Source: a virus (Duplodnaviria > Heunggongvirae > Uroviricota > Caudoviricetes). Taken from it: a stretch of 18,910 nucleotides of DNA. The position numbers were made by a program, and so were the translations under genes. Below are positions 1 through 14,276 of this stretch, one piece after another. Below the pieces are notes generated by a model. That model had not been told where the DNA came from. It did no database searches and saw only the letters and a program-made list of their open reading frames with translations. Each line of letters begins with the position of its first letter. Position 1 is the stretch's first letter. The stretch lies in the IMG/VR virus record IMGVR_UViG_3300031227_011131; one strand, given 5' to 3'.

Positions 1-783
1 ATTTTGGGGCGCAAACTGGTCAAGGTTGATTGCAACCCGTACATGACGCTTTCGAGCATTTATGGGTCAAAGACTGTCGAGGTTGATCCTGAAACTAAAC
101 AGAACAGGGTTGTTTGGCAGGACGGTCCGGTTATCAAGTCGATGCAAGAGGGTTTGGACGATGATGGCAATGAAGTTGGCGAGCCGGCCATTCTGTTTTT
201 TGATGAGGCTGCTGCTATCCCGGCAGATGTGGCCATAGCTCTGAATGGTCTGTTTGCACAGCGTCAACATCGTCGGGAAATATGTATATCGGAAGATGGC
301 AATCGCAAGGTTGTGTCGCACAGCGGCATGCGGATAGTTTGTGCTGCCAACACAATTGGTCGCGGTTTGCTTGGGTTGGGCCAGTCCGAGTATCACGCTC
401 AGGCGGACGGGCTTGACATTAGCACGCTTGACCGTATTGACGTGGTTGTTCCGATTGGTTACTCCAAGAAAGCTGAAAAAAAGCTATTGATGGAAAAGAT
501 TGGCAATGACCGCATTGTCGCCAAGATGATTCAGTTCAGGGATGGGGTTCGTGATTCCATCAAACAGGGCAAGACATTTACTCCGTTCGGTACTCGGAAG
601 CTAGTTCAGGTTGCCGACATGAGCAATGTTTTGGGCGACATTCTGAAGGCTATCTACTACGTGGTTTATACTAAGCTGATGCCGGAAGAAGTCGTCAAGT
701 ACAACGAGATAGCTTTTGCTGCCTTTGGCAAGGATATTGTCAAGGAAGTTCAGGACACGGACGGGGATATTGACTATATGTAG
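1..783 (+). CDS. MoxR/CobS-like AAA+ ATPase, C-terminal part (5' end outside window)
   Basis: Frame open from base 1. Walker B ILFFDE, sensor-1 VCAANT, Arg-finger LDISTLDRID; Walker A is upstream of the window. Followed by a terminator. Confidence 0.85.
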   Translation: MLGRKLVKVDCNPYMTLSSIYGSKTVEVDPETKQNRVVWQDGPVIKSMQEGLDDDGNEVGEPAILFFDEAAAIPADVAIALNGLFAQRQHRREICISEDGNRKVVSHSGMRIVCAANTIGRGLLGLGQSEYHAQADGLDISTLDRIDVVVPIGYSKKAEKKLLMEKIGNDRIVAKMIQFRDGVRDSIKQGKTFTPFGTRKLVQVADMSNVLGDILKAIYYVVYTKLMPEEVVKYNEIAFAAFGKDIVKEVQDTDGDIDYM

Positions 784-3100: not shown

Positions 3101-3301
3101 ATGCTTAGCCGTAAACGAAGTGACAGGATGGCACTTGTGCGTCGTCGTATGGCAAAGGAAGACGTTGTTGCGGTGTTTGTTTGTAATGATGGTGAAGTGA
3201 TTGAAATTAGGTCTGATAATCTTGACTTTGATTTGCCAAAAGAGGGCGACTTGTATTCCAAGATGATTGGTGTTAGAAAATTCAGCCTACTCTGTTCTTG
3301 A
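3101..3301 (+). CDS. Small hypothetical protein (start uncertain)
   Basis: ORF 3080-3301 downstream of the promoter; ATG at 3101 or 3128. Confidence 0.5.
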   Translation: MLSRKRSDRMALVRRRMAKEDVVAVFVCNDGEVIEIRSDNLDFDLPKEGDLYSKMIGVRKFSLLCS

Positions 3302-3366
3302 TTTGCTGTCCAAATATAGGAATGCTGTGAATTACAGTATTCTGCCGAATTGTGTCAAAAAAATTG

Positions 3367-3404
3367 CCTCTACTGGGTATAATCTCAGTAGGGGCTTTGT
3401 TTTT
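3367..3404 (+). terminator. Hairpin whose loop is exactly TATAAT, followed by a T-rich tract
   Basis: gcctctactggg-TATAAT-ctcagtaggggc (12 bp, 2 G:U), then tttgtttt. Confidence 0.5.
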
Positions 3405-3417
3405 CAGGAGGTGACAA

Positions 3418-4065
3418 ATGTCGGATAAGAAGCTGATTTTGATAAGCGAAGAGCTTGATATTCGTTCAAGGGATTTGCAAAAGCGTCAAATTGAGAATGA
3501 TGTGTTACAGGCTCAAGTTGAAGAATATAAGGCCAAGATGGTTGTGGCGGCTGATATGCTCAATGTAGGCCAAGAAGCTTTGCAATTTTTGGAAGATGTT
3601 GCTAATAGTCGTCGTGGCGCGATGAAGGTCAGGATTGAGCAGATTATTACAGAATCATTGCAGTTGATTTATGGTACAGATTATGCGGTTGCGCTTACTT
3701 ATGATGTCAAGAACAATCGTAGTTTCATGGATATTGAACTTGTTCTGCAAACGAAGGACGGGGAAGTAAGGAGGACAATGAATGGTTTTGGGGGCGGTGT
3801 TTCAGATTGCATATCAGTTCCTTTGCGGTTACTTGTATTGCTTGGTTCTCGGCAGACGGATAGGGTATGTGTGTTAGATGAAAGTTATAAGCATGTAGAC
3901 CTTGAGCGAATTGAATCGGTAGCTGAGTTTTTGGCTGACATAGCTCAACGTCTTGGAATACAGATTTTGTTGTTTTCTCATCATGCTGCAATGGCAGAAG
4001 AATCAGATGCTGTATATGACATTCGTGATGAGAGTGGCAGGGCAGTACTTGAAAAGACATCATGA
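3418..4065 (+). CDS. Split SbcC/Rad50-like ABC-ATPase, C-terminal half
   Basis: SD aggaggt. Coiled-coil N-terminus, signature FGGG, Walker B VLDE, D-loop YKHVD, H-loop FSHH; no Walker A. Confidence 0.8.
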   Translation: MSDKKLILISEELDIRSRDLQKRQIENDVLQAQVEEYKAKMVVAADMLNVGQEALQFLEDVANSRRGAMKVRIEQIITESLQLIYGTDYAVALTYDVKNNRSFMDIELVLQTKDGEVRRTMNGFGGGVSDCISVPLRLLVLLGSRQTDRVCVLDESYKHVDLERIESVAEFLADIAQRLGIQILLFSHHAAMAEESDAVYDIRDESGRAVLEKTS

Positions 4066-5325: not shown

Positions 5326-6591
5326 ATGGCTAAGAACGATGAGAAACTGAACGAAGCAAGTCAAACAATGGACGGGTGTTATGGGGTGCAGACGACTATT
5401 GAGGTCGTCACAAAGTTTCTTGACACGGTATTCAAGATGAATGCTGCTATTGAGGGTGGCGGGACAGGCAGATTTTCGTCCTGTATATGGGGGCATGCGG
5501 GAATCGGCAAAACAGATATGATAAAGTCTTTTGAGAATCACCCTGTGACATGGGGTGGAAAGGAGTATGAGGGATATAGGGTAATTGATGTCCCTATTGC
5601 CCAGTTTGAAGAGATGGGTGATTTGCACGGAATTCCAATGGATTGTGTGCGGATGACCAATAACGGTGATGAGCAGTGGGTTCCTCAGAAGGATGAGGTT
5701 GTTCGTGCTTATCGAGAGAACGATTGGAAAATTGACACAGCTTCTAAGCCACGTACATTCATGGCCCCCCCGCCTTGGGTTCCTGACAAGCCCGGTCCTT
5801 CGATTCTTTTGTTGGATGATTGGAATCGGGCATCAATCCGCATCATCAAGGGCATAATGCAGTTGCTTCAGAACTACGGCATGGTTTCATGGAGTCTGCC
5901 TCTTGGTTGCAATATCGTCCTTACGGGCAATCCTGACGAGCAGGATTATTTGGTCACTACGATTGATCAAGCCATTCTGACCAGGATTAAGCACGTCACG
6001 TTGAAAGAGGATGCGAGCGAATGGGCGGTATGGGCTGTTGCCAACAAGATTGACAATCGGCTCATAAACTGGGTTTTGGCATATCCTGAGATGATGATTG
6101 GCAAGGAGCGTACGAATCCAAGAACGCTATCGGAGTTTGGTCGTTTCTTGAATTTGGTTGGCAGTGTTGAGTCCGAGCGTGAGGAAGTTGTGCTACATGC
6201 TCATTCTTTGCTGGATGAGGAAACAGTAGCTTCTATGCTTGTGTTTTTCACTCGCGAGATGGAAGACATCGTTGAGCCGGAAGATGTTCTTGAAGGCAAA
6301 GAAAAGGCTTTCAAACACATTGAGAACTTGATGACCAAGCGCAAGGAAGCTCGTGTTGATGTCGTCGGCATCACAATGGAGCGTTTGTATGCTCACATGG
6401 TACAGCCTGATTGCAAGCAGAGTCCGAAGCGAGTTAAAAACTTTCAGCGGTTCATCACTATGGGTTGTATTCCAGAGGATATGCGCCATAGCGTTTGCCG
6501 TCGGATTGCTAAGCGTCGTGAGAACAGGTTCAATCATTGGATTATCGGTGACAAGAAACTGAAAGCCTTGATTATGGACACTTTGCGGTAA
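5326..6591 (+). CDS. MoxR-like AAA+ ATPase
   Basis: Walker A WGHAGIGKT, Walker B ILLLDDWNRA, sensor-1 LTGNP, Arg finger AILTR; SD aggag. Confidence 0.9.
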   Translation: MAKNDEKLNEASQTMDGCYGVQTTIEVVTKFLDTVFKMNAAIEGGGTGRFSSCIWGHAGIGKTDMIKSFENHPVTWGGKEYEGYRVIDVPIAQFEEMGDLHGIPMDCVRMTNNGDEQWVPQKDEVVRAYRENDWKIDTASKPRTFMAPPPWVPDKPGPSILLLDDWNRASIRIIKGIMQLLQNYGMVSWSLPLGCNIVLTGNPDEQDYLVTTIDQAILTRIKHVTLKEDASEWAVWAVANKIDNRLINWVLAYPEMMIGKERTNPRTLSEFGRFLNLVGSVESEREEVVLHAHSLLDEETVASMLVFFTREMEDIVEPEDVLEGKEKAFKHIENLMTKRKEARVDVVGITMERLYAHMVQPDCKQSPKRVKNFQRFITMGCIPEDMRHSVCRRIAKRRENRFNHWIIGDKKLKALIMDTLR

Positions 6592-9223: not shown

Positions 9224-9297
9224 GATTTAGTGTTGTAATTTTTTGGAAAACTTGTTGCAAATTTGATTTTTGTGTGTAATATATTTGTAGTCATTAT

Positions 9298-9373
9298 CGC
9301 GGCGTAGAGCAGTGGACAGCTCGCCAGTCTCATAAACTGGAAGTCGCAGGTTCGAATCCCGTCGGTTACCCCA
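9298..9373 (+). tRNA. Chimeric tRNA: fMet(CAT) 5' part plus foreign (His-like) 3' end
   Basis: CGCGGCG..CCAGT-CT CAT AA-ACTGG..GCAGG TTCGAAT, then CCCGT CGGTTAC C CCA, which does not pair with the acceptor 5' strand. Confidence 0.8.
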
Positions 9374-9437
9374 TTTTGGCGGCTATGTATAATGTCGCGG
9401 GGATGGCATTGCATCGATCATCGTAGGAGGCGCAAGA

Positions 9438-9719
9438 ATGGCCAAGAATAGCATACGGCAGCGTATACCGAACTTCGTGGGTGGAGGGTCCCCGGAGACC
9501 GCGGAGTTTGGGACGATAGAAGAGCTGCTTTTGATACCGTGGGTGGCGCAGTGGATGCAAGTGATGGACGGCGTCCCATTTCTGCGGTTCTCGAAGTCGA
9601 AGGATATTCTAATGGTCGAGCACGGTCAAGAGAAGCAAGAGTCGTTCTGGGCCGTTGGTTATCTAAAGGACCCCGGCTCGGTGGATCTGCCCGAGTGGGT
9701 TAACCAACAGCGGATATGA
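9438..9719 (+). CDS. Hypothetical protein, GC-richer codons, flanked by 11-bp direct repeats
   Basis: SD aggagg; catcgatcatc at 9412-9422 and 9734-9744. Confidence 0.7.
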   Translation: MAKNSIRQRIPNFVGGGSPETAEFGTIEELLLIPWVAQWMQVMDGVPFLRFSKSKDILMVEHGQEKQESFWAVGYLKDPGSVDLPEWVNQQRI

Positions 9720-9751
9720 AACTTGCGGGGCTCCATCGATCATCCTACTTT

Positions 9752-9822
9752 GGCGCTGTCGTCTAATGGAAGGACGGCGGGTTCTCAGCCCGCAGGCCAG
9801 GGTTCGACTCCCTGTAGCGTCA
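9752..9822 (+). tRNA. tRNA-Glu(CTC)
   Basis: GGCGCTG/TAGCGTC acceptor, GCGGG-TT CTC AG-CCCGC, CAGGG TTCGACT CCCTG; CCA not encoded. Confidence 0.9.
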
Positions 9823-9830
9823 CGAGATTA

Positions 9831-9901
9831 GCGGGCGTCGTCTAATGGCAGGGCCTCAGCCTTCCAAGCTGATGACGAGGGTTCGAATCCTGTCGCCGCT
9901 A
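9831..9901 (+). tRNA. Chimeric tRNA: Gly(TCC) 5' part plus fMet 3' end
   Basis: TCAGC-CT TCC AA-GCTGA. The 3' strand CCTGT CGCCGCT A mispairs with its own 5' half but pairs with the 9298 fMet 5' half. Confidence 0.8.
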
Positions 9902-9930
9902 TCATGGTTTGAGTTATTGAGGAAAGAGAA

Positions 9931-10065
9931 ATGACTGATGACCTAATTGCGAAATGTAGAACATCAACACAGTGGTTGCCAGAACCGAAGGTGCAACCGT
10001 TGTGCCTGCATTTCGTGTTTGTATGCGATAATGCCGGATGCGGTGTGGAGGTTTGTAGCCCATGA
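9931..10065 (+). CDS. 44-aa Cys-containing microprotein
   Basis: SD gagg; MTDDLIAKCRTSTQWLPEPKVQPLCLHFVFVCDNAGCGVEVCSP; not in the ORF track. Confidence 0.5.
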   Translation: MTDDLIAKCRTSTQWLPEPKVQPLCLHFVFVCDNAGCGVEVCSP

Positions 10066-10081
10066 CTTAGGCTCAAAAAAT

Positions 10082-10178
10082 AAGTCAAAGTGGTTGCAAG
10101 CCTGTCAAGGAAACTTGACGGGTTTTTTTTGTTGGAAAATGATGAATTTTTTTGGATAGCTCGGTGATATAATAGTGC
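10082..10178 (+). repeat. Terminator-plus-promoter intergenic module, copy 2
   Basis: cctgtcaag-GAAA-cttgacggg-T8, then ggaaaatgatgaat..ggtgaTATAATagtg (TATAAT 10168-10173). Confidence 0.8.
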
Positions 10179-10198
10179 TGACAGTCATGTCTGAAGAA

Positions 10199-10221
10199 GC
10201 TCTTTGATAACTGAGTTTGGA
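10199..10221 (+). promoter_or_regulatory. boxA-like antitermination element in tRNA-operon leader
   Basis: gctctttgataactgagtttgga resembles rrn boxA (E. coli TGCTCTTTAACA); 20-nt identity to 4475-4494. Confidence 0.6.
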
Positions 10222-10269
10222 AAACGCCAAATGTCATCAATCGGCTGGGGAGTAATGTCCTCAGTTGTT

Positions 10270-10343
10270 CGGAGCGTGGGCTAGTTTGGTAAGCCACCAG
10301 TTTTGGGAACTGGTAATCGGAGGTTCAAATCCTCTCGCTCCGA
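10270..10343 (+). tRNA. tRNA-Pro(TGG), canonical
   Basis: CGGAGCG/CGCTCCG acceptor, CCAGT-TT TGG GA-ACTGG, GGAGG TTCAAAT CCTCT. Confidence 0.92.
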
Positions 10344-10356
10344 TTTTCTTAGGTAA

Positions 10357-10511
10357 TAAAGCGATGTGAAAAAGGGTACGACGCTGTTGTGTGTAGTCGT
10401 GAGCGAAAGCAGCGGCAAGGGAGATATTCTCGCCCAACACACAACAGAATTAAGCGGAAGCCGCCTGCTAAGTAGGTTGTCGTCCTTGAAACCTTAGCAA
10501 GCATCGCTTTA
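10357..10511 (+). ncRNA. Unidentified structured RNA with possible pseudoknot
   Basis: 11-bp closing stem taaagcgatgt/gcatcgcttta; perfect 11-bp ctgttgtgtgt/acacacaacag; tgctaag (10466) complementary to cttagca (10493). Confidence 0.65.
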
Positions 10512-10514
10512 CAT

Positions 10515-10604
10515 CTGGGTGTAGCTCAGCTTGGCCAGAGCACTCGGCTTGGAACCGAGAGGCCGGAAAGGTATACGCTGGTTCAAATCCAGCCACTCAG
10601 ACCA
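10515..10604 (+). tRNA. tRNA-Pro(TGG) with 17-nt variable region, CCA encoded
   Basis: CTGGGTG/CACTCAG, CTCGG-CT TGG AA-CCGAG, AGGCCGGAAAGGTATAC, GCTGG TTCAAAT CCAGC, ACCA. Confidence 0.85.
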
Positions 10605-10606
10605 AC

Positions 10607-10798
10607 GGCGGCGGGTGCCTTACAGCATTCATCCAATAATGCATGCCGCTTGTGGATGAATGACGGGTTACTACCGCCAACTTCTTCTGTCTATAGGTGA
10701 CACCTTCCTATTCTGTGACGGTATGGCGACGAGCGGGTGGAACCCGTGGACGACCATATTGGAGAAAAAGTGGTGTGACTCCGGGGAGAGCGACCCGG
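10607..10798 (+). ncRNA. Structured spacer RNA(s) between tRNA-Pro genes
   Basis: Perfect 10-bp cattcatcca/tggatgaatg within ggcgg/ccgcc; further stems atagg/cctat, gtatgg/ccatat and ccggg/cccgg. Confidence 0.45.
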
Positions 10799-10801
10799 CG
10801 A

Positions 10802-10883
10802 CGGAATGTGGCGCAGTTTGGTAGCGCGCTCGGTTTGGGGCCGAGGGGCCGAGAGGTCGTGAGTTCAAGTCTCACCATTCCGA
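10802..10883 (+). tRNA. tRNA-Pro(TGG) with 13-nt variable arm
   Basis: CGGAATG/CATTCCG, CTCGG-TT TGG GG-CCGAG, GGCC-GAGA-GGTC arm, GTGAG TTCAAGT CTCAC. Confidence 0.85.
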
Positions 10884-10967
10884 TTATGGGTGTCAATGTC
10901 GTGCGAGCCAGTTAGAAGAAAGCATTACCCTGCGAGTAATCTAGCCCGTCAATCGAAACAGGATGCC

Positions 10968-10992
10968 TTGGGAGATACGGTGTATCTCCCAA
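10968..10992 (+). other. Perfect 11-bp hairpin before tRNA-Lys remnant
   Basis: ttgggagatac-ggt-gtatctcccaa. Confidence 0.6.
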
Positions 10993-10994
10993 AA

Positions 10995-11056
10995 CGGGGC
11001 GTAGCGCAATTGGTAGCGCACCTGACTTTTAATCAGGTTGTTGCCGGTTCAAGTCC
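10995..11056 (+). pseudogene. tRNA-Lys(TTT) truncated after the T-loop
   Basis: Intact D arm and CCTGA-CT TTT AA-TCAGG; GCCGG TTCAAGT CC, then non-pairing TTCTGGGAAAA. Confidence 0.8.
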
Positions 11057-11078
11057 TTCTGGGAAAAAGGAGTATGAC

Positions 11079-11342
11079 ATGGAATTAAAGCGTGTGGAAT
11101 GCAAAGAAGACATGCACATTGAAATGGGCTATTTAGTTTTGTGGAAGAAATTTGAGATGGGGCAGTCGTGTGTCAGAGAAGAAATGCTTGATGATACAAT
11201 TTGGGACATGGCATGTTGGGGGTGGCGTAATGGCGAGAAGCGTATCATAATTGAAGGTTACGAACATGACATTAGTTGCCGATTTGATGAAATTGGGGCA
11301 GTTTTTGAGTTGCCGGATAGGCATAGCGAAATTTCCTTATGA
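11079..11342 (+). CDS. Hypothetical protein
   Basis: SD aaggag, ATG 11079 (upstream part of the tracked ORF overlaps RNA genes). Confidence 0.65.
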   Translation: MELKRVECKEDMHIEMGYLVLWKKFEMGQSCVREEMLDDTIWDMACWGWRNGEKRIIIEGYEHDISCRFDEIGAVFELPDRHSEISL

Positions 11343-11410
11343 ATGAGAATCTATCTAACATAGATATATGATATGAAACTTAGTGCTTTTCAATAGAAAA
11401 TGTAACTATA

Positions 11411-11434
11411 GGGGACGTAACTCAATGGAAGAGT
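11411..11434 (+). pseudogene. tRNA 5' fragment (acceptor 5' strand plus D arm)
   Basis: GGGGACG TA ACTC AATGGAA GAGT, with no anticodon or T arm following. Confidence 0.5.
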
Positions 11435-11443
11435 GGTTTTTGA

Positions 11444-11473
11444 TTGACAATTGAGTTACTGTTATGGTAGTGT
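11444..11473 (+). promoter_or_regulatory. Promoter for the HTH/Zn-finger gene
   Basis: TTGACA-18 nt-TAGTGT with TGG extension. Confidence 0.45.
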
Positions 11474-11501
11474 GTTCATGTCTTATTCAAGGAGAAAAGA
11501 C

Positions 11502-11858
11502 ATGGACAAGGCTCTGTTAGAAGATGCGGCAAGGCGTCGTCTTTCTACGCATAGGATGGCCGACGAACTGGGATGTAGTCAGACGAATGTTATGTATTGG
11601 TTGAGAAAACATGGCCTGAAGACAGACACCTCGGTAAGACGTGGCATCAAGAGGAAGGGATTGAATGTTAGTTGTTATATTTGTGGCAAACCAACAAAAG
11701 AGGGCAGACGCCTTTGCCCTTGCTGTACGATAAAGGTAAGACGGTATAGGGTAAAGCTGGATGGTAAACCATTAGCAGTCGAGCGCCGGACAGTGCAAGA
11801 GCATAGAAAGGTGCACTCGTGTACGAGGACCTATTGCCGAGGGTTAGGCGAACGCTGA
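11502..11858 (+). pseudogene. HTH plus Zn-finger protein, likely N-terminal part of an HNH homing endonuclease lacking the nuclease domain
   Basis: SD aaggag. HTH (MADELGCSQTNVMYWLRKHGL), CYICG..CPCC, RRYRVKL, after which the sequence turns into stem-rich GC-richer DNA with no HNH motif. Confidence 0.55.
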
Positions 11859-11950
11859 GGCGTCTGGCTGGACAACCCCGTGCCCAGGTAGGTTGAATTC
11901 CTGAAGCACCTTTTCGTAAACTGGGCGATAGTTGCTCTGCGACATCTAAC
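11760..11950 (+). ncRNA. Probable structured RNA of unknown class
   Basis: agtgca/tgcact, ctcgt/acgag and gcccag/ctgggc stems, T-arm-like agg-ttgaatt-cct; lies immediately 5' of tRNA-Leu. Confidence 0.35.
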
Positions 11951-11975
11951 AGAAAGACACCGTAAGTTGTCAATT

Positions 11976-12049
11976 AGGAGCGTGACGGAACTGGCATACG
12001 TGGTCGGCTCAAACCCGGCATTTTGTGGGTTCGACTCCCTTCGCTCCTA
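11976..12049 (+). tRNA. tRNA-Leu(CAA), short variable loop
   Basis: AGGAGCG/CGCTCCT, GTCGG-CT CAA AC-CCGGC; one T.T mismatch in the T-stem. Confidence 0.85.
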
Positions 12050-12060
12050 TCATTGAAATC

Positions 12061-12185
12061 ATAGGGAGAGATGTGGGATGTGAATACCACAGGCAGCTTC
12101 GGAAACTATGGTTTTCGGGGTCCGTCGGGCAGCCCTTAGCGGGGAGTAAGTCGGGCTAAGCAGGTTTGAATCCTGCCCTCTCTAT
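12061..12185 (+). ncRNA. tRNA-like RNA with two extra arms in place of the anticodon/variable arms
   Basis: 8-bp atagggag/ctctctat, D-like tgtgg/ccaca, 11-bp hairpin with TATG loop, agccc/gggct arm, T-arm gcagg-TTTGAAT-cctgc. Confidence 0.6.
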
Positions 12186-12219
12186 GTTTTTCAGGTTTTT
12201 TCGTGAAAAATTAGCGATA

Positions 12220-12229
12220 GGTGATATAA
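12220..12229 (+). promoter_or_regulatory. GGTGATATAA promoter motif
   Basis: 19-nt identity (taggtgatataaaggtagt) with 18863-18881. Confidence 0.7.
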
Positions 12230-12273
12230 AGGTAGTTGAAAACATGGACACAGACACGAACAAGGGGAATGAA

Positions 12274-12426
12274 ATGACAATGGAAGAGATGGAACTAATA
12301 GATATTTACTGGAGAATAATGGCAGAGTATCGGAAGGAGTATTTTCTGGGCGAAGCAGATGTCGTCGATCAAATGGACGAGAAGTTGGACGAAATCTACG
12401 ATAGGCTCCAAAGTCTCGCTGTATAA
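12274..12426 (+). CDS. Small acidic hypothetical protein
   Basis: SD aagggga, ATG 12274. Confidence 0.6.
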   Translation: MTMEEMELIDIYWRIMAEYRKEYFLGEADVVDQMDEKLDEIYDRLQSLAV

Positions 12427-12460
12427 ACAATCCAAAAAAGAGGCTGAAAAGGAGTTGGGC

Positions 12461-12751
12461 ATGGAAATGACAGCAAAAAAGAGAATTGAAACTTTGGGCG
12501 ATTATCGTAATGTTGCCTCACTGTTGAAGGCAGCAATAGAGTCAAATGATGTTGAGGCTATTGAGAATCTTTCGGCCTGTGCTGAAGAGATGTATGATTC
12601 GCTTCGCTATCAAGCACCGTGGATCACTAAAAGGACGGATGAGCAGTTGGGCATGCAAGAGGTGTTCAAAGCCGCTCGCGTTATTTATTGCGAAGTTCGG
12701 GACTATTGGATAAAGACTCAAAATGAGGATCTAGTTCCATACGAGGGATAG
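12461..12751 (+). CDS. Hypothetical protein
   Basis: SD aaggag, ATG 12461; followed by a terminator. Confidence 0.7.
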   Translation: MEMTAKKRIETLGDYRNVASLLKAAIESNDVEAIENLSACAEEMYDSLRYQAPWITKRTDEQLGMQEVFKAARVIYCEVRDYWIKTQNEDLVPYEG

Positions 12752-12767
12752 TGGTTGGTAGGTGGCT

Positions 12768-12804
12768 CGCCTCACTGAGAACATCAGTGGGGCGTCTTTT
12801 TTTT
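12768..12804 (+). terminator. Intrinsic terminator
   Basis: cgcctcactga-gaaca-tcagtggggcg followed by a T-tract. Confidence 0.85.
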
Positions 12805-12952
12805 GGCTCGCCTAATCGGTATGGCACTCTTTGGATTTCATTTCCAGAATTTTTTATGCACAATTTGGCACAAAAGAAGAGCGTGATGAAGCTATAATGG
12901 AAACATGGTGACGTTTTGAAATTGAATCTTGATTGTGACAGGGGAAAGAGTC

Positions 12953-13589
12953 TTGAATGACAGAGAAAAGCAAGAATTGAGCTATTGGCAGCGTAAAGGC
13001 ATTTCATTGGGTCGTCATTATTTCGTTCAGAAGCATAAAGAACGTTTGGAGATATTTAGGAAACTTCACAGTTTTCCAAGCGGCTTGATTGCTATTGATA
13101 TAGGTTGTGGCCCTTTCGGCGGGATGTCCTTAGTTTACAAGGGAGAGCGAGAAAGCCCACGGCTTTAGGCGTGGGAGTAGTCACAAGGCGTCTAATTTTT
13201 ATCTTGTGGATTCATTGAACAATGCGTACAAGGAATTGATAGATCAGGTAAATGGCTTTGTCTATTTGGCGAATCATTCCGAGAGTTTGAATATAGCCGA
13301 TAGTAGTGTAGAAATTGCCTTTTGTTGCAATGTTCTCGACCATACGGAAAGCAGATCAAAAACGTTGAAAGAGACACATCGCGTATTGAAGTTAGGTGGT
13401 TTATTTTGTCTATCTGTGCATTGCAGGACAAAGGAGCAATTGAGTTCTTTGCACAAGCAGGCTTTCACGTATGCGGAATTGACGGCTGAACTTCTTGAGT
13501 CTGGTTTTAGCAATTTGGGTAGTAGGTCAGACAGGCGTACTGCTGACGGTCATATTGTTTTTGATGGTGTGTTTCAAAATGGAGTTTGA
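12953..13589 (+). pseudogene. Class I SAM-dependent methyltransferase interrupted by a 46-bp element
   Basis: Motif I IDIGCGP in the 5' piece; VDSL..Y, CCNVLDH and VLKLGG in the 3' piece. Deleting 13139-13184 fuses them in frame (LVY-KASNFYLVDSL). Confidence 0.85.
13139..13184 (+). mobile_element. Minimal IS200/IS605-derived (PATE-like) element
   Basis: Follows TTAC; imperfect hairpin cccacggc-ttta-ggcgtggg; ends agtagTCAC. Confidence 0.75.
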
Positions 13590-13876
13590 TGATGATAGTT
13601 GTGGTTGATTGTATTCCGAGTGGCGGCAGACCGATATATGATAAGAGGATTGATGGAACTGTCCAAGTTGTAGACGAGGTTGATGGAAAATTTGATGCTG
13701 TTGAGACAGGTCATGGCGCCGCTCGGGTGCTTGTGCCACTTTTTGGGCAAACACGGGAAATGACAAGTGTTATGACTGAGGTGATTGAGGAATATGCTAT
13801 AGAGGAATCGAATATTGTCATTGTTTTACAGGATGACAAGATTGGACTTTTGATACACAATGGAAACGCCATCTAA
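13586..13876 (+). CDS. Hypothetical protein
   Basis: Start overlaps the methyltransferase stop (TTGA/TGATG); normal codon usage. Confidence 0.65.
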   Translation: MMMIVVVDCIPSGGRPIYDKRIDGTVQVVDEVDGKFDAVETGHGAARVLVPLFGQTREMTSVMTEVIEEYAIEESNIVIVLQDDKIGLLIHNGNAI

Positions 13877-13903
13877 ATTCTCATTCATTATTGGAGAATA
13901 GTC

Positions 13904-14086
13904 ATGATTGATGCCGACTTGTTTAAATTGATCGAAGCATCCATTGCCGAGTCAATGGAAAACGACCGCATATTCAACTGCAAAGAGGGGCAATGTCAAA
14001 GTAAGGCGTTCATAGCCATGGTGAATCACGTTCGAGGATGTCGAAAAAGAAAAGATCAGGCTTTGTTGGACGAGATAGACACTTAG
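13904..14086 (+). CDS. Small hypothetical protein
   Basis: SD ggag; 60 aa. Confidence 0.55.
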   Translation: MIDADLFKLIEASIAESMENDRIFNCKEGQCQSKAFIAMVNHVRGCRKRKDQALLDEIDT

Positions 14087-14276
14087 GATGGCAAGTAGTC
14101 ATCGGCATCTTGGGAGTTATTTGTCAGTGATATTGCTGTGCATATAGCCAAGTTGACGAACGATGATATCATTGCTATAACAGAGAGGATATTTGGTGGA
14201 GAGATGAAGTTCATCAAAATGACTCAAGGCGAACGCGAAGCTTTTTGAGAAAAGTCGTCAATTTTTGGTTTGGCGT

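Follow-up and report, generated by a model that had tools for sequence, protein, structure and literature searches.

A stem-closed, strongly structured 155-nucleotide RNA module between two tRNA-Pro genes of an uncultured salt-lake phage

The stretch of DNA analyzed here (the window; 18,910 nt) is part of a 221,945-bp salt-lake metagenome contig from an uncultured phage. PHROG and Pfam matches nearby include a CobS/CobT-like AAA+/vWA pair, ATPases, and a NUDIX protein, and the matches of the surrounding open reading frames (ORFs) point to a large phage; a T4 Rnl1-type RNA ligase is encoded approximately 10 kb downstream. Genes standing in a row upstream of the tRNA region (L098 6213-10596/window 1-783) encode a 569-aa CobT-like vWA protein, a protein with a WGR domain, and an AAA+ ATPase that is CobS/MoxR-like. 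The tRNA cluster itself occupies positions 9300 to 12200 on the plus strand, the strand that carries all nine tRNA matches of the window. The element under study (hereafter RNA155) begins 13 nt past one tRNA-Pro gene of this cluster and ends 3 nt ahead of the next one, on the same strand, the latter distance being exactly as the first-pass annotation had it. The features of the immediate neighborhood are as follows:

10098..10133, plus strand: intrinsic-terminator-like hairpin with T-run (12-bp stem, GAAA loop), closing the upstream unit
10140..10173, plus strand: promoter-like block of putative function, ending in an extended -10 (TGaTATAAT, 10165-10173)
10270..10343, plus strand: tRNA-Pro(UGG) 1, canonical, no encoded CCA, 64.2 bits
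10344..10356, plus strand: linker after tRNA-Pro1, U/A-rich, single-stranded, UUUUCUUAGGUAA
10357..10511, plus strand: RNA155
10512..10514, plus strand: linker before tRNA-Pro2, CAU, 3 nt
10515..10604, plus strand: tRNA-Pro(UGG) 2, long variable arm, encoded CCA, 59.5 bits

The first 27 nt of the promoter-like block (TGWTGWAATTTTTTGGA..., 10140-10166) recur at 9231-9257 (repeat family D5, 74% identity). Each copy precedes a tRNA transcription unit and is followed by a -10-like TATAAT or TAATAT; the block is probably a phage-specific promoter element. No promoter-like or terminator-like site was found on the plus strand within RNA155, nor did we find a credible ORF there; the frames present are 25 to 59 aa long and either use a GTG or TTG start codon located within a stem or extend into the tRNAs. 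The three tRNA-Pro genes differ at their 3' ends, with CCA being encoded by tRNA-Pro2 (10602-10604) and not by tRNA-Pro1 (10343-10346) or tRNA-Pro3 (10883-10886); the three copies would need differing routes of 3' maturation. The spacer between tRNA-Pro2 and tRNA-Pro3 (10605-10801; 197 nt) is also folded (z of -3.0 to -3.4) and closed by a stem, of approximately 12 bp, that abuts the tRNAs.

RNA155 has a predicted minimum free energy of -60.4 kcal/mol (z = -4.26), and none of 200 dinucleotide shuffles was equally stable. It contains two perfect inverted repeats of at least 10 nt (one of 11 and one of 10), whereas a repeat of this kind was present in 6 of 2,000 dinucleotide shuffles. Also by the standards of its surroundings, RNA155 is in the extreme tail: 160-nt segments across the 18.9-kb window have a mean z of -0.58 (standard deviation, 1.33), and just 3 of the 205 segments have a z of -4.3 or lower. 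The most structured segment of the window, with z values of -4.8 and -4.3 for a pair of overlapping 160-nt segments, is the gap between a DUF6744 gene and the gene for a 215-aa ATPase (3281-3520). Also among the most structured is segment 10956-11120 (z = -4.6), which overlaps a called, perhaps spurious, 148-aa ORF; it includes a tRNA-model match at 11000-11061 that covers model positions 6 to 65 only, hence without the acceptor stem, and a weak YrlA match (17.5 bits) at 10956-11046, away from RNA155. The predicted fold of RNA155 consists of eight helices:

10357-10367 with 10501-10511, plus strand: P1, closing stem, 11 bp (10 Watson-Crick pairs and one U-G), pair probability 0.72-1.0
10368-10372 (GAAAA, 5' side) and 10496-10500 (AGCAA, 3' side), plus strand: purine-rich 5x5 internal loop, from folding
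10373-10377 (AGGGU) with 10491-10495 (ACCUU), plus strand: P2, pair probability approximately 0.65
10378-10383 (ACGACG) with 10478-10483 (UGUCGU), plus strand: P3, pair probability approximately 0.88
10384-10394 with 10437-10447, plus strand: P4, perfect 11-bp helix; the whole arm (10384-10447) is capped by a three-way junction
10396-10416, plus strand: P5/P5a, on the junction above P4, a GC-GAAA-GC hairpin within GUCGU/GCGGC, with a GAAA tetraloop
10419-10435, plus strand: P6, on the junction above P4, a GGG..GAGA/UCUC..CCC hairpin
10454-10461 or to 10464, plus strand: P7, small hairpin, GC-GGAA-GC (0.57) or GCGG-AAG-CCGC (0.28)
10463-10477, plus strand: P8, hairpin CCUGC-UAA-GUAGG, 6 bp with UAA loop, pair probability 0.68-0.96
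10478-10511, plus strand: 3' strands of P3, P2, and P1, including a 7-nt bulge (10484-10490)

Taken helix by helix, base-pair probabilities were 0.9 to 1.0 for P1, P4, P5, and P8, approximately 0.9 for P3, and 0.5 to 0.7 for P2, P6, and P7. The junctions leave few nucleotides unpaired (1, 2, and 1 in the upper three-way junction; 0, 6, 1, and 0 in the lower four-way junction), and a GNRA reading is possible for two of the four hairpin loops, GAAA and GGAA. The plus strand folds better than its reverse complement, with 53 pairs, including 7 G-U, at -59.8 kcal/mol, compared to 47 pairs at -51.6 kcal/mol. The structure is a thermodynamic prediction for a single sequence, no relative of RNA155 having been found in the collections searched.

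Most of the helices had already been pointed out in the first-pass annotation. The 11-bp closing stem, identified in both the sequence and the fold, the acgacg/tgtcgt helix (P3), the perfect 11-bp arm topped by a junction with gc-GAAA-gc and gaga/tctc hairpins (P4, P5/P5a, and P6), and the cctgc/gtagg hairpin (P8) were all recovered, as was the gcgg/ccgc hairpin, albeit as one of two alternative forms of P7. The aagg/cctt pairing proposed below P3 is present as a complementarity (10372-10375 with 10484-10487), but forming it costs 2.2 kcal/mol more than forming P2. The proposed pseudoknot between tgctaag and cttagca did not hold up. UGCUAAG (10466-10472) is indeed complementary to CUUAGCA (10493-10499, one position off from the 3' arm given originally), but a 7-nt Watson-Crick match of this type arises in 35% of 2,000 shuffles, with a mean of 0.57 per sequence. 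Moreover, the 5' arm consists of P8 nucleotides (the 5' strand, the loop, and the first base of the 3' strand) and the 3' arm overlaps P2, so that the interaction would be an alternative pairing, unable to coexist with either helix. Forcing it raised the free energy from -60.4 to -56.0 kcal/mol, a cost of 4.4 kcal/mol, and its probability in the ensemble is approximately 0.01.

A search of Rfam 15 over 10345-10514 yielded no family, neither at gathering thresholds nor at an E value of <10 with permissive filters, in agreement with the earlier remark that no family was recognized. By these models, RNA155 lies outside the catalogued ribozymes, riboswitches, GOLLD, ROOL, YrlA, tmRNA, RNase P RNA, 6S RNA, and pRNA. 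Since T4 RNAs C and D (rnaC and rnaD) do not have an Rfam family either, such an absence is weak evidence of novelty. The same phage is present in at least four other assemblies (L001 to L004) and in Logan contigs of four salt-lake runs, and because the element is 100% identical in all of them, population variants are lacking. A covariance model (R1) built from the single RNA155 sequence retrieved nothing but RNA155 itself from the window and a 38-kb portion of the phage genome, and it found nothing in 9 related IMG/VR records searched whole, in two relatives' tRNA arrays searched with filters off, or in 74 metagenome loci (656 kb). Likewise, nhmmer searches of approximately 1 Mb gave no match for RNA155, for spacer 10605-10801, or for a structured spacer of a related phage (L015; see below), and blastn against GenBank phages and plasmids gave chance hits only (E ≥ 2). 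Neither an exact 26-mer nor a degenerate junction pattern was matched, and a loop-to-loop pattern had 0 matches in viral contigs and 3 in GTDB genomes, where about 2 are expected by chance; these were rejected by the covariance model. A second copy is absent from this 38-kb portion and from the related phages' loci. The neighboring genes differ in how far they can be traced: a 421-aa ATPase encoded 3.8 kb upstream has relatives at 34 to 63% identity in 9 IMG/VR and 74 metagenome contigs, whereas a search among 5.8 billion proteins gave no relative for the product of the 391-aa gene located 1.7 kb upstream, which, hence, offers no synteny route to close relatives of the element. Atlas look-ups of the 459-aa and 385-aa neighbors yielded no usable lead. 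RNA155, in short, is a real, strongly structured, and probably transcribed RNA module of no known family and with no relatives in the collections searched.

To our mind, the most economical reading is that RNA155 looks like a passenger RNA of a phage tRNA operon, which would make it a known kind of thing: a self-contained, stem-closed module that would be released by the maturation of its neighbors and that resembles T4 RNAs C and D in its location. We give this reading a probability of roughly 45%. To the direct observations reported above (fold statistics, strand preference, operon context, and lack of a coding frame), it adds transcription, cleavage sites, and stability, which we infer. RNA155 is probably transcribed, and the promoter-like block at approximately 10140-10173 would drive its expression together with that of the three tRNA-Pro genes. 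The nascent RNA would then fold on itself, with the 11-bp closing stem leading via P2 and P3 to the four-way junction, one arm of which would be the perfect 11-bp helix with the GAAA-capped three-way junction at its end. UUUU follows tRNA-Pro1, and cleavage in the U-rich trailer of this CCA-less tRNA by RNase Z, or by RNase E (plus exonucleases), would probably generate the 5' end, while RNase P cleavage at the 5' end of tRNA-Pro2 (10514/10515) would set the 3' end. The proposed cuts follow established tRNA-processing pathways. The released piece would measure approximately 171 nt (10344-10514), have its ends protected by P1, and persist as a small stable RNA similar to T4 RNAs C and D.

Because RNA155 would pair only with itself, both flanking tRNAs might be left to fold independently. 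In silico, the tRNA-RNA155-tRNA stretch indeed folds as cloverleaf, module, and cloverleaf, and the pairs of the flanking tRNAs have a mean probability of 0.83, compared to 0.62 ± 0.15 with shuffled spacers. Since the native value is reached by 5% of the shuffled spacers, this insulation test is weak (P of approximately 0.05), and its outcome partly follows from the strong self-pairing of this spacer. A second reservation concerns P1, which keeps positions -4 to -14 of the tRNA-Pro2 leader base paired and may hinder RNase P as easily as help it.

RNA155 is not the only structured spacer in this phage group. In the tRNA arrays of two related phages (L014 and L015), HNH ORFs and a tmRNA are accompanied by several long spacers that lack ORFs and are strongly folded (z values of -3 to -5.5). 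At 2049-2925 of L015 (IMGVR_UViG_3300032304_002285), an ORF for a zinc-finger/HNH endonuclease within the array directly precedes a tRNA-Pro gene, which is followed by a 317-nt ORF-free spacer with a 13-bp closing stem and a z of -4.2; the tmRNA is located at 5869-6272 of the array. An nhmmer comparison showed no homology among the relatives' structured spacers or between these and RNA155. Stem-closed, self-folding inserts are thus a recurrent yet fast-changing trait of the tRNA arrays of this phage group. For the passenger reading this is a mixed blessing, as nonhomologous spacers fit fast-evolving filler equally well as functional RNAs.

Several other explanations deserve consideration. First, the lower part of RNA155 could be a cis-acting processing stalk, in which P1, the 5x5 loop, and P2/P3 form a T7-type signal for RNase III (or a similar enzyme) that separates tRNA-Pro1 from tRNA-Pro2, with the upper part being dispensable and the fragments degraded. 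In its dimensions (11 bp below a symmetric internal loop rich in purines and, above it, another 11 bp interrupted by a 7-nt bulge), this part resembles phage RNase III signals and rRNA leader-trailer stalks, and the next spacer (10605-10801) has a comparable closing stem between tRNAs. However, RNA155 has no uninterrupted helix of approximately 20 bp, a cleavage signal would not need the elaborate P4-P8 superstructure, and tRNA operons normally do not need RNase III. We therefore consider this explanation unlikely, although it is the one to be taken most seriously next to the passenger reading.

Alternatively, RNA155 might have no function at the RNA level and represent a recombination scar, a decayed insert, or a MITE-like DNA inverted-repeat element that is palindromic by chance. 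Its perfect 10-bp terminal inverted repeats would suit such an origin, as would the fact that the element is unique to this phage and is accompanied by a gene (the 391-aa gene) that is equally devoid of relatives. Against this speak the seven G-U pairs and the advantage of 8 kcal/mol, which favor the transcribed strand, and the GNRA-type loops; in addition, a nested hierarchy of eight helices is unlike a simple palindrome. The element is also a single-copy one (in 38 kb of the phage and the related phages' loci) without a target-site duplication at its flanks, and for these reasons a MITE or small IS element in the strict sense was rejected despite the 10-bp terminal inverted repeat. Overall, we find an absence of any RNA-level function rather improbable.

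A third alternative holds that RNA155 is a trans-acting, protein-binding small RNA similar to Y RNAs, the closing stem and adjoining loop of which would dock an RNA-binding protein of the phage or its host, such as a Ro60/TROVE-type ring, amid the RNA-repair genes of the phage. The above-mentioned Rnl1-type ligase fits this setting, and a related phage (G008), whose neighboring ATPase is 57% identical, encodes a TROVE protein (68 bits) near the corresponding position. A further point is a sequence in the neighboring spacer 10605-10801, where the 5' strand of the closing stem is directly followed by CCUUACAGCAU (10618-10628); this matches the Class I RNA motif of Dictyostelium at 10 of 11 positions, given the full spelling of that 11-nt motif, which we take to be CCUUACAGCAA. 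In Dictyostelium, the motif sits beside the 5' stem and has five near-invariant letters (PMC7919456). RNA155 itself has CCUUAGCAA abutting the closing stem, immediately 5' of the 3' strand of P1, but this likeness is on the 3' side, is two letters short, and was noticed post hoc; the 5' strand of P1 is followed by GAAAAAGG instead of the Class I motif. Furthermore, the YrlA model (RF02553) does not match RNA155, which has no T-arm, and the 38 kb searched (record positions 74192-112422) contain no TROVE or DUF2828 gene, the upstream 569-aa vWA protein being CobT-like. Among 10 related or partly related records, DUF2828 was found in none and TROVE above the cutoff in one. The ORF-free region upstream of the G008 TROVE gene was compared with RNA155, and the likeness was not significant. 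For RNA155, the Y-RNA-like reading is thus a minor rival and an improbable one, while it does provide a lead for the neighboring 197-nt spacer.

A candidate Ro60/Y-RNA locus lies at 11610-14236 of the related phage L103 (IMGVR_UViG_3300029288_000063). Here, an aberrant tRNA-Met-like gene of 92 nt (12231-12322) and approximately 500 nt devoid of ORFs, with many GNRA-capped hairpins, precede a 575-aa TROVE (Ro60-like) ORF (12509-14236; 68 bits).

Going one step further, one could speculate that RNA155 is the only sequenced member of a novel class of small, structured, trans-acting phage RNAs cut out of tRNA precursors. It might dock a host tRNA-targeting defense protein or RNA-repair protein or serve as its decoy, with the purine-rich GAAAA/AGCAA loop beside the closing stem as the recognition site; we see slim odds for this scenario. 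Least probable is the ribozyme- or aptamer-like architecture suggested in the first-pass annotation, i.e., a self-cleaving ribozyme or ligand-binding aptamer: the multihelix layout with two GNRA-type loops and the occurrence of theta (HDV-like) ribozymes directly after phage tRNAs (PMC10879173) might speak for it, but no self-cleaving ribozyme or riboswitch model matched at an E value of <10, the pseudoknot is at chance level, the nearly fully paired junctions leave few unpaired nucleotides from which to build a pocket or active site (the 1+2+1 nucleotides of the upper one would not suffice for a hammerhead core), a tRNA comes next, so that there is no downstream gene to regulate, and conservation is lacking. 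Several more specific candidates were also discarded: a retron msr-msd (no reverse transcriptase domain in the ORFs scanned or in precomputed Pfam lists), an RNase P RNA-like element (unfit helix order, no model match), a T-box-like tRNA sensor (a CCA but neither a UGGN nor a model match), an 11-nt tetraloop receptor in P8 (incomplete motif), and a TnpB/IscB guide RNA scaffold (no nuclease gene).

Non-tRNA RNAs packed into the tRNA clusters of large phages form the background to the passenger reading, and RNA155 is a clean, well-delimited example of approximately 155 nt and eight helices, flanked by tRNA genes at distances of 13 nt (upstream) and 3 nt (downstream). As a singleton, it does not by itself advance the question of what such RNAs do, but it can be placed among the systems known so far. 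T4 RNAs C and D, the sequences of which date from the 1970s, are non-tRNA species of 119 to 139 nt encoded in a phage tRNA cluster on the tRNA strand. Gaps of 1 to 6 nt separate them from the preceding tRNA and from one another (rnaD and rnaC come 1 and 6 nt, respectively, after tRNA-Arg), and a homing endonuclease is found in the same cluster. RNA155 shares this layout, being located in a phage tRNA cluster, on the same strand, and a few nucleotides away from a tRNA, and rnaC is comparably folded (z = -4.6). On the other hand, there is no sequence or structural homology between the T4 RNAs and RNA155: rnaC has a tRNA-type T-arm and an acceptor-like stem, whereas RNA155 has no T-loop and does not match the tRNA model. 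In addition, RNA155 lies between two tRNAs and the T4 RNAs lie at the end of their cluster, and the latter were shown to accumulate, which for RNA155 we can only infer. The function of T4 RNAs C and D (species 1 and 2) is still unknown (PMC9697503).

Stem-closed small RNAs that are often located within or next to phage tRNA arrays and RNA-repair genes are also found among the Y RNAs and YrlA, partners of Ro60 (Rsr); YrlA differs from RNA155 in that the latter has no tRNA-like domain and no match to RF02553. The RNase III stalks of rRNA operons and phage T7 resemble RNA155 in having a stem formed by flanking sequence within a stable-RNA operon. For the rRNA operons, there is also a weak boxA-like string in the RNA155 leader (10198-10210), to which we attach no weight, as it has 3 mismatches to the Escherichia coli consensus and such hits are fewer than expected by chance (not significant). 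The RNA155 stalk, however, reaches only 11 bp before the internal loop and encloses a spacer, not the functional RNA.

Three further RNA types invite comparison. GOLLD and ROOL are ornate, protein-free RNAs of phages and prophages that are often found next to tRNA islands and whose function is unknown (PMC12286853). They are much larger than the 155 nt of RNA155 (GOLLD is in many cases longer than 800 nt, and ROOL is large as well), contain many pseudoknots, and are widely conserved with covariation; none of their Rfam models matches RNA155. [quoted passage not shown] These fold into a compact, nested double pseudoknot that contains a catalytic C, whereas RNA155 has a nested multihelix fold without a supported pseudoknot, and they adjoin their tRNAs directly, whereas RNA155 begins 13 nt past its tRNA and matches no HDV-type model. 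GOLLD, ROOL, and theta ribozymes are thus, in our comparison, looser parallels to RNA155 than T4 RNAs C and D, which are the closest documented parallel.
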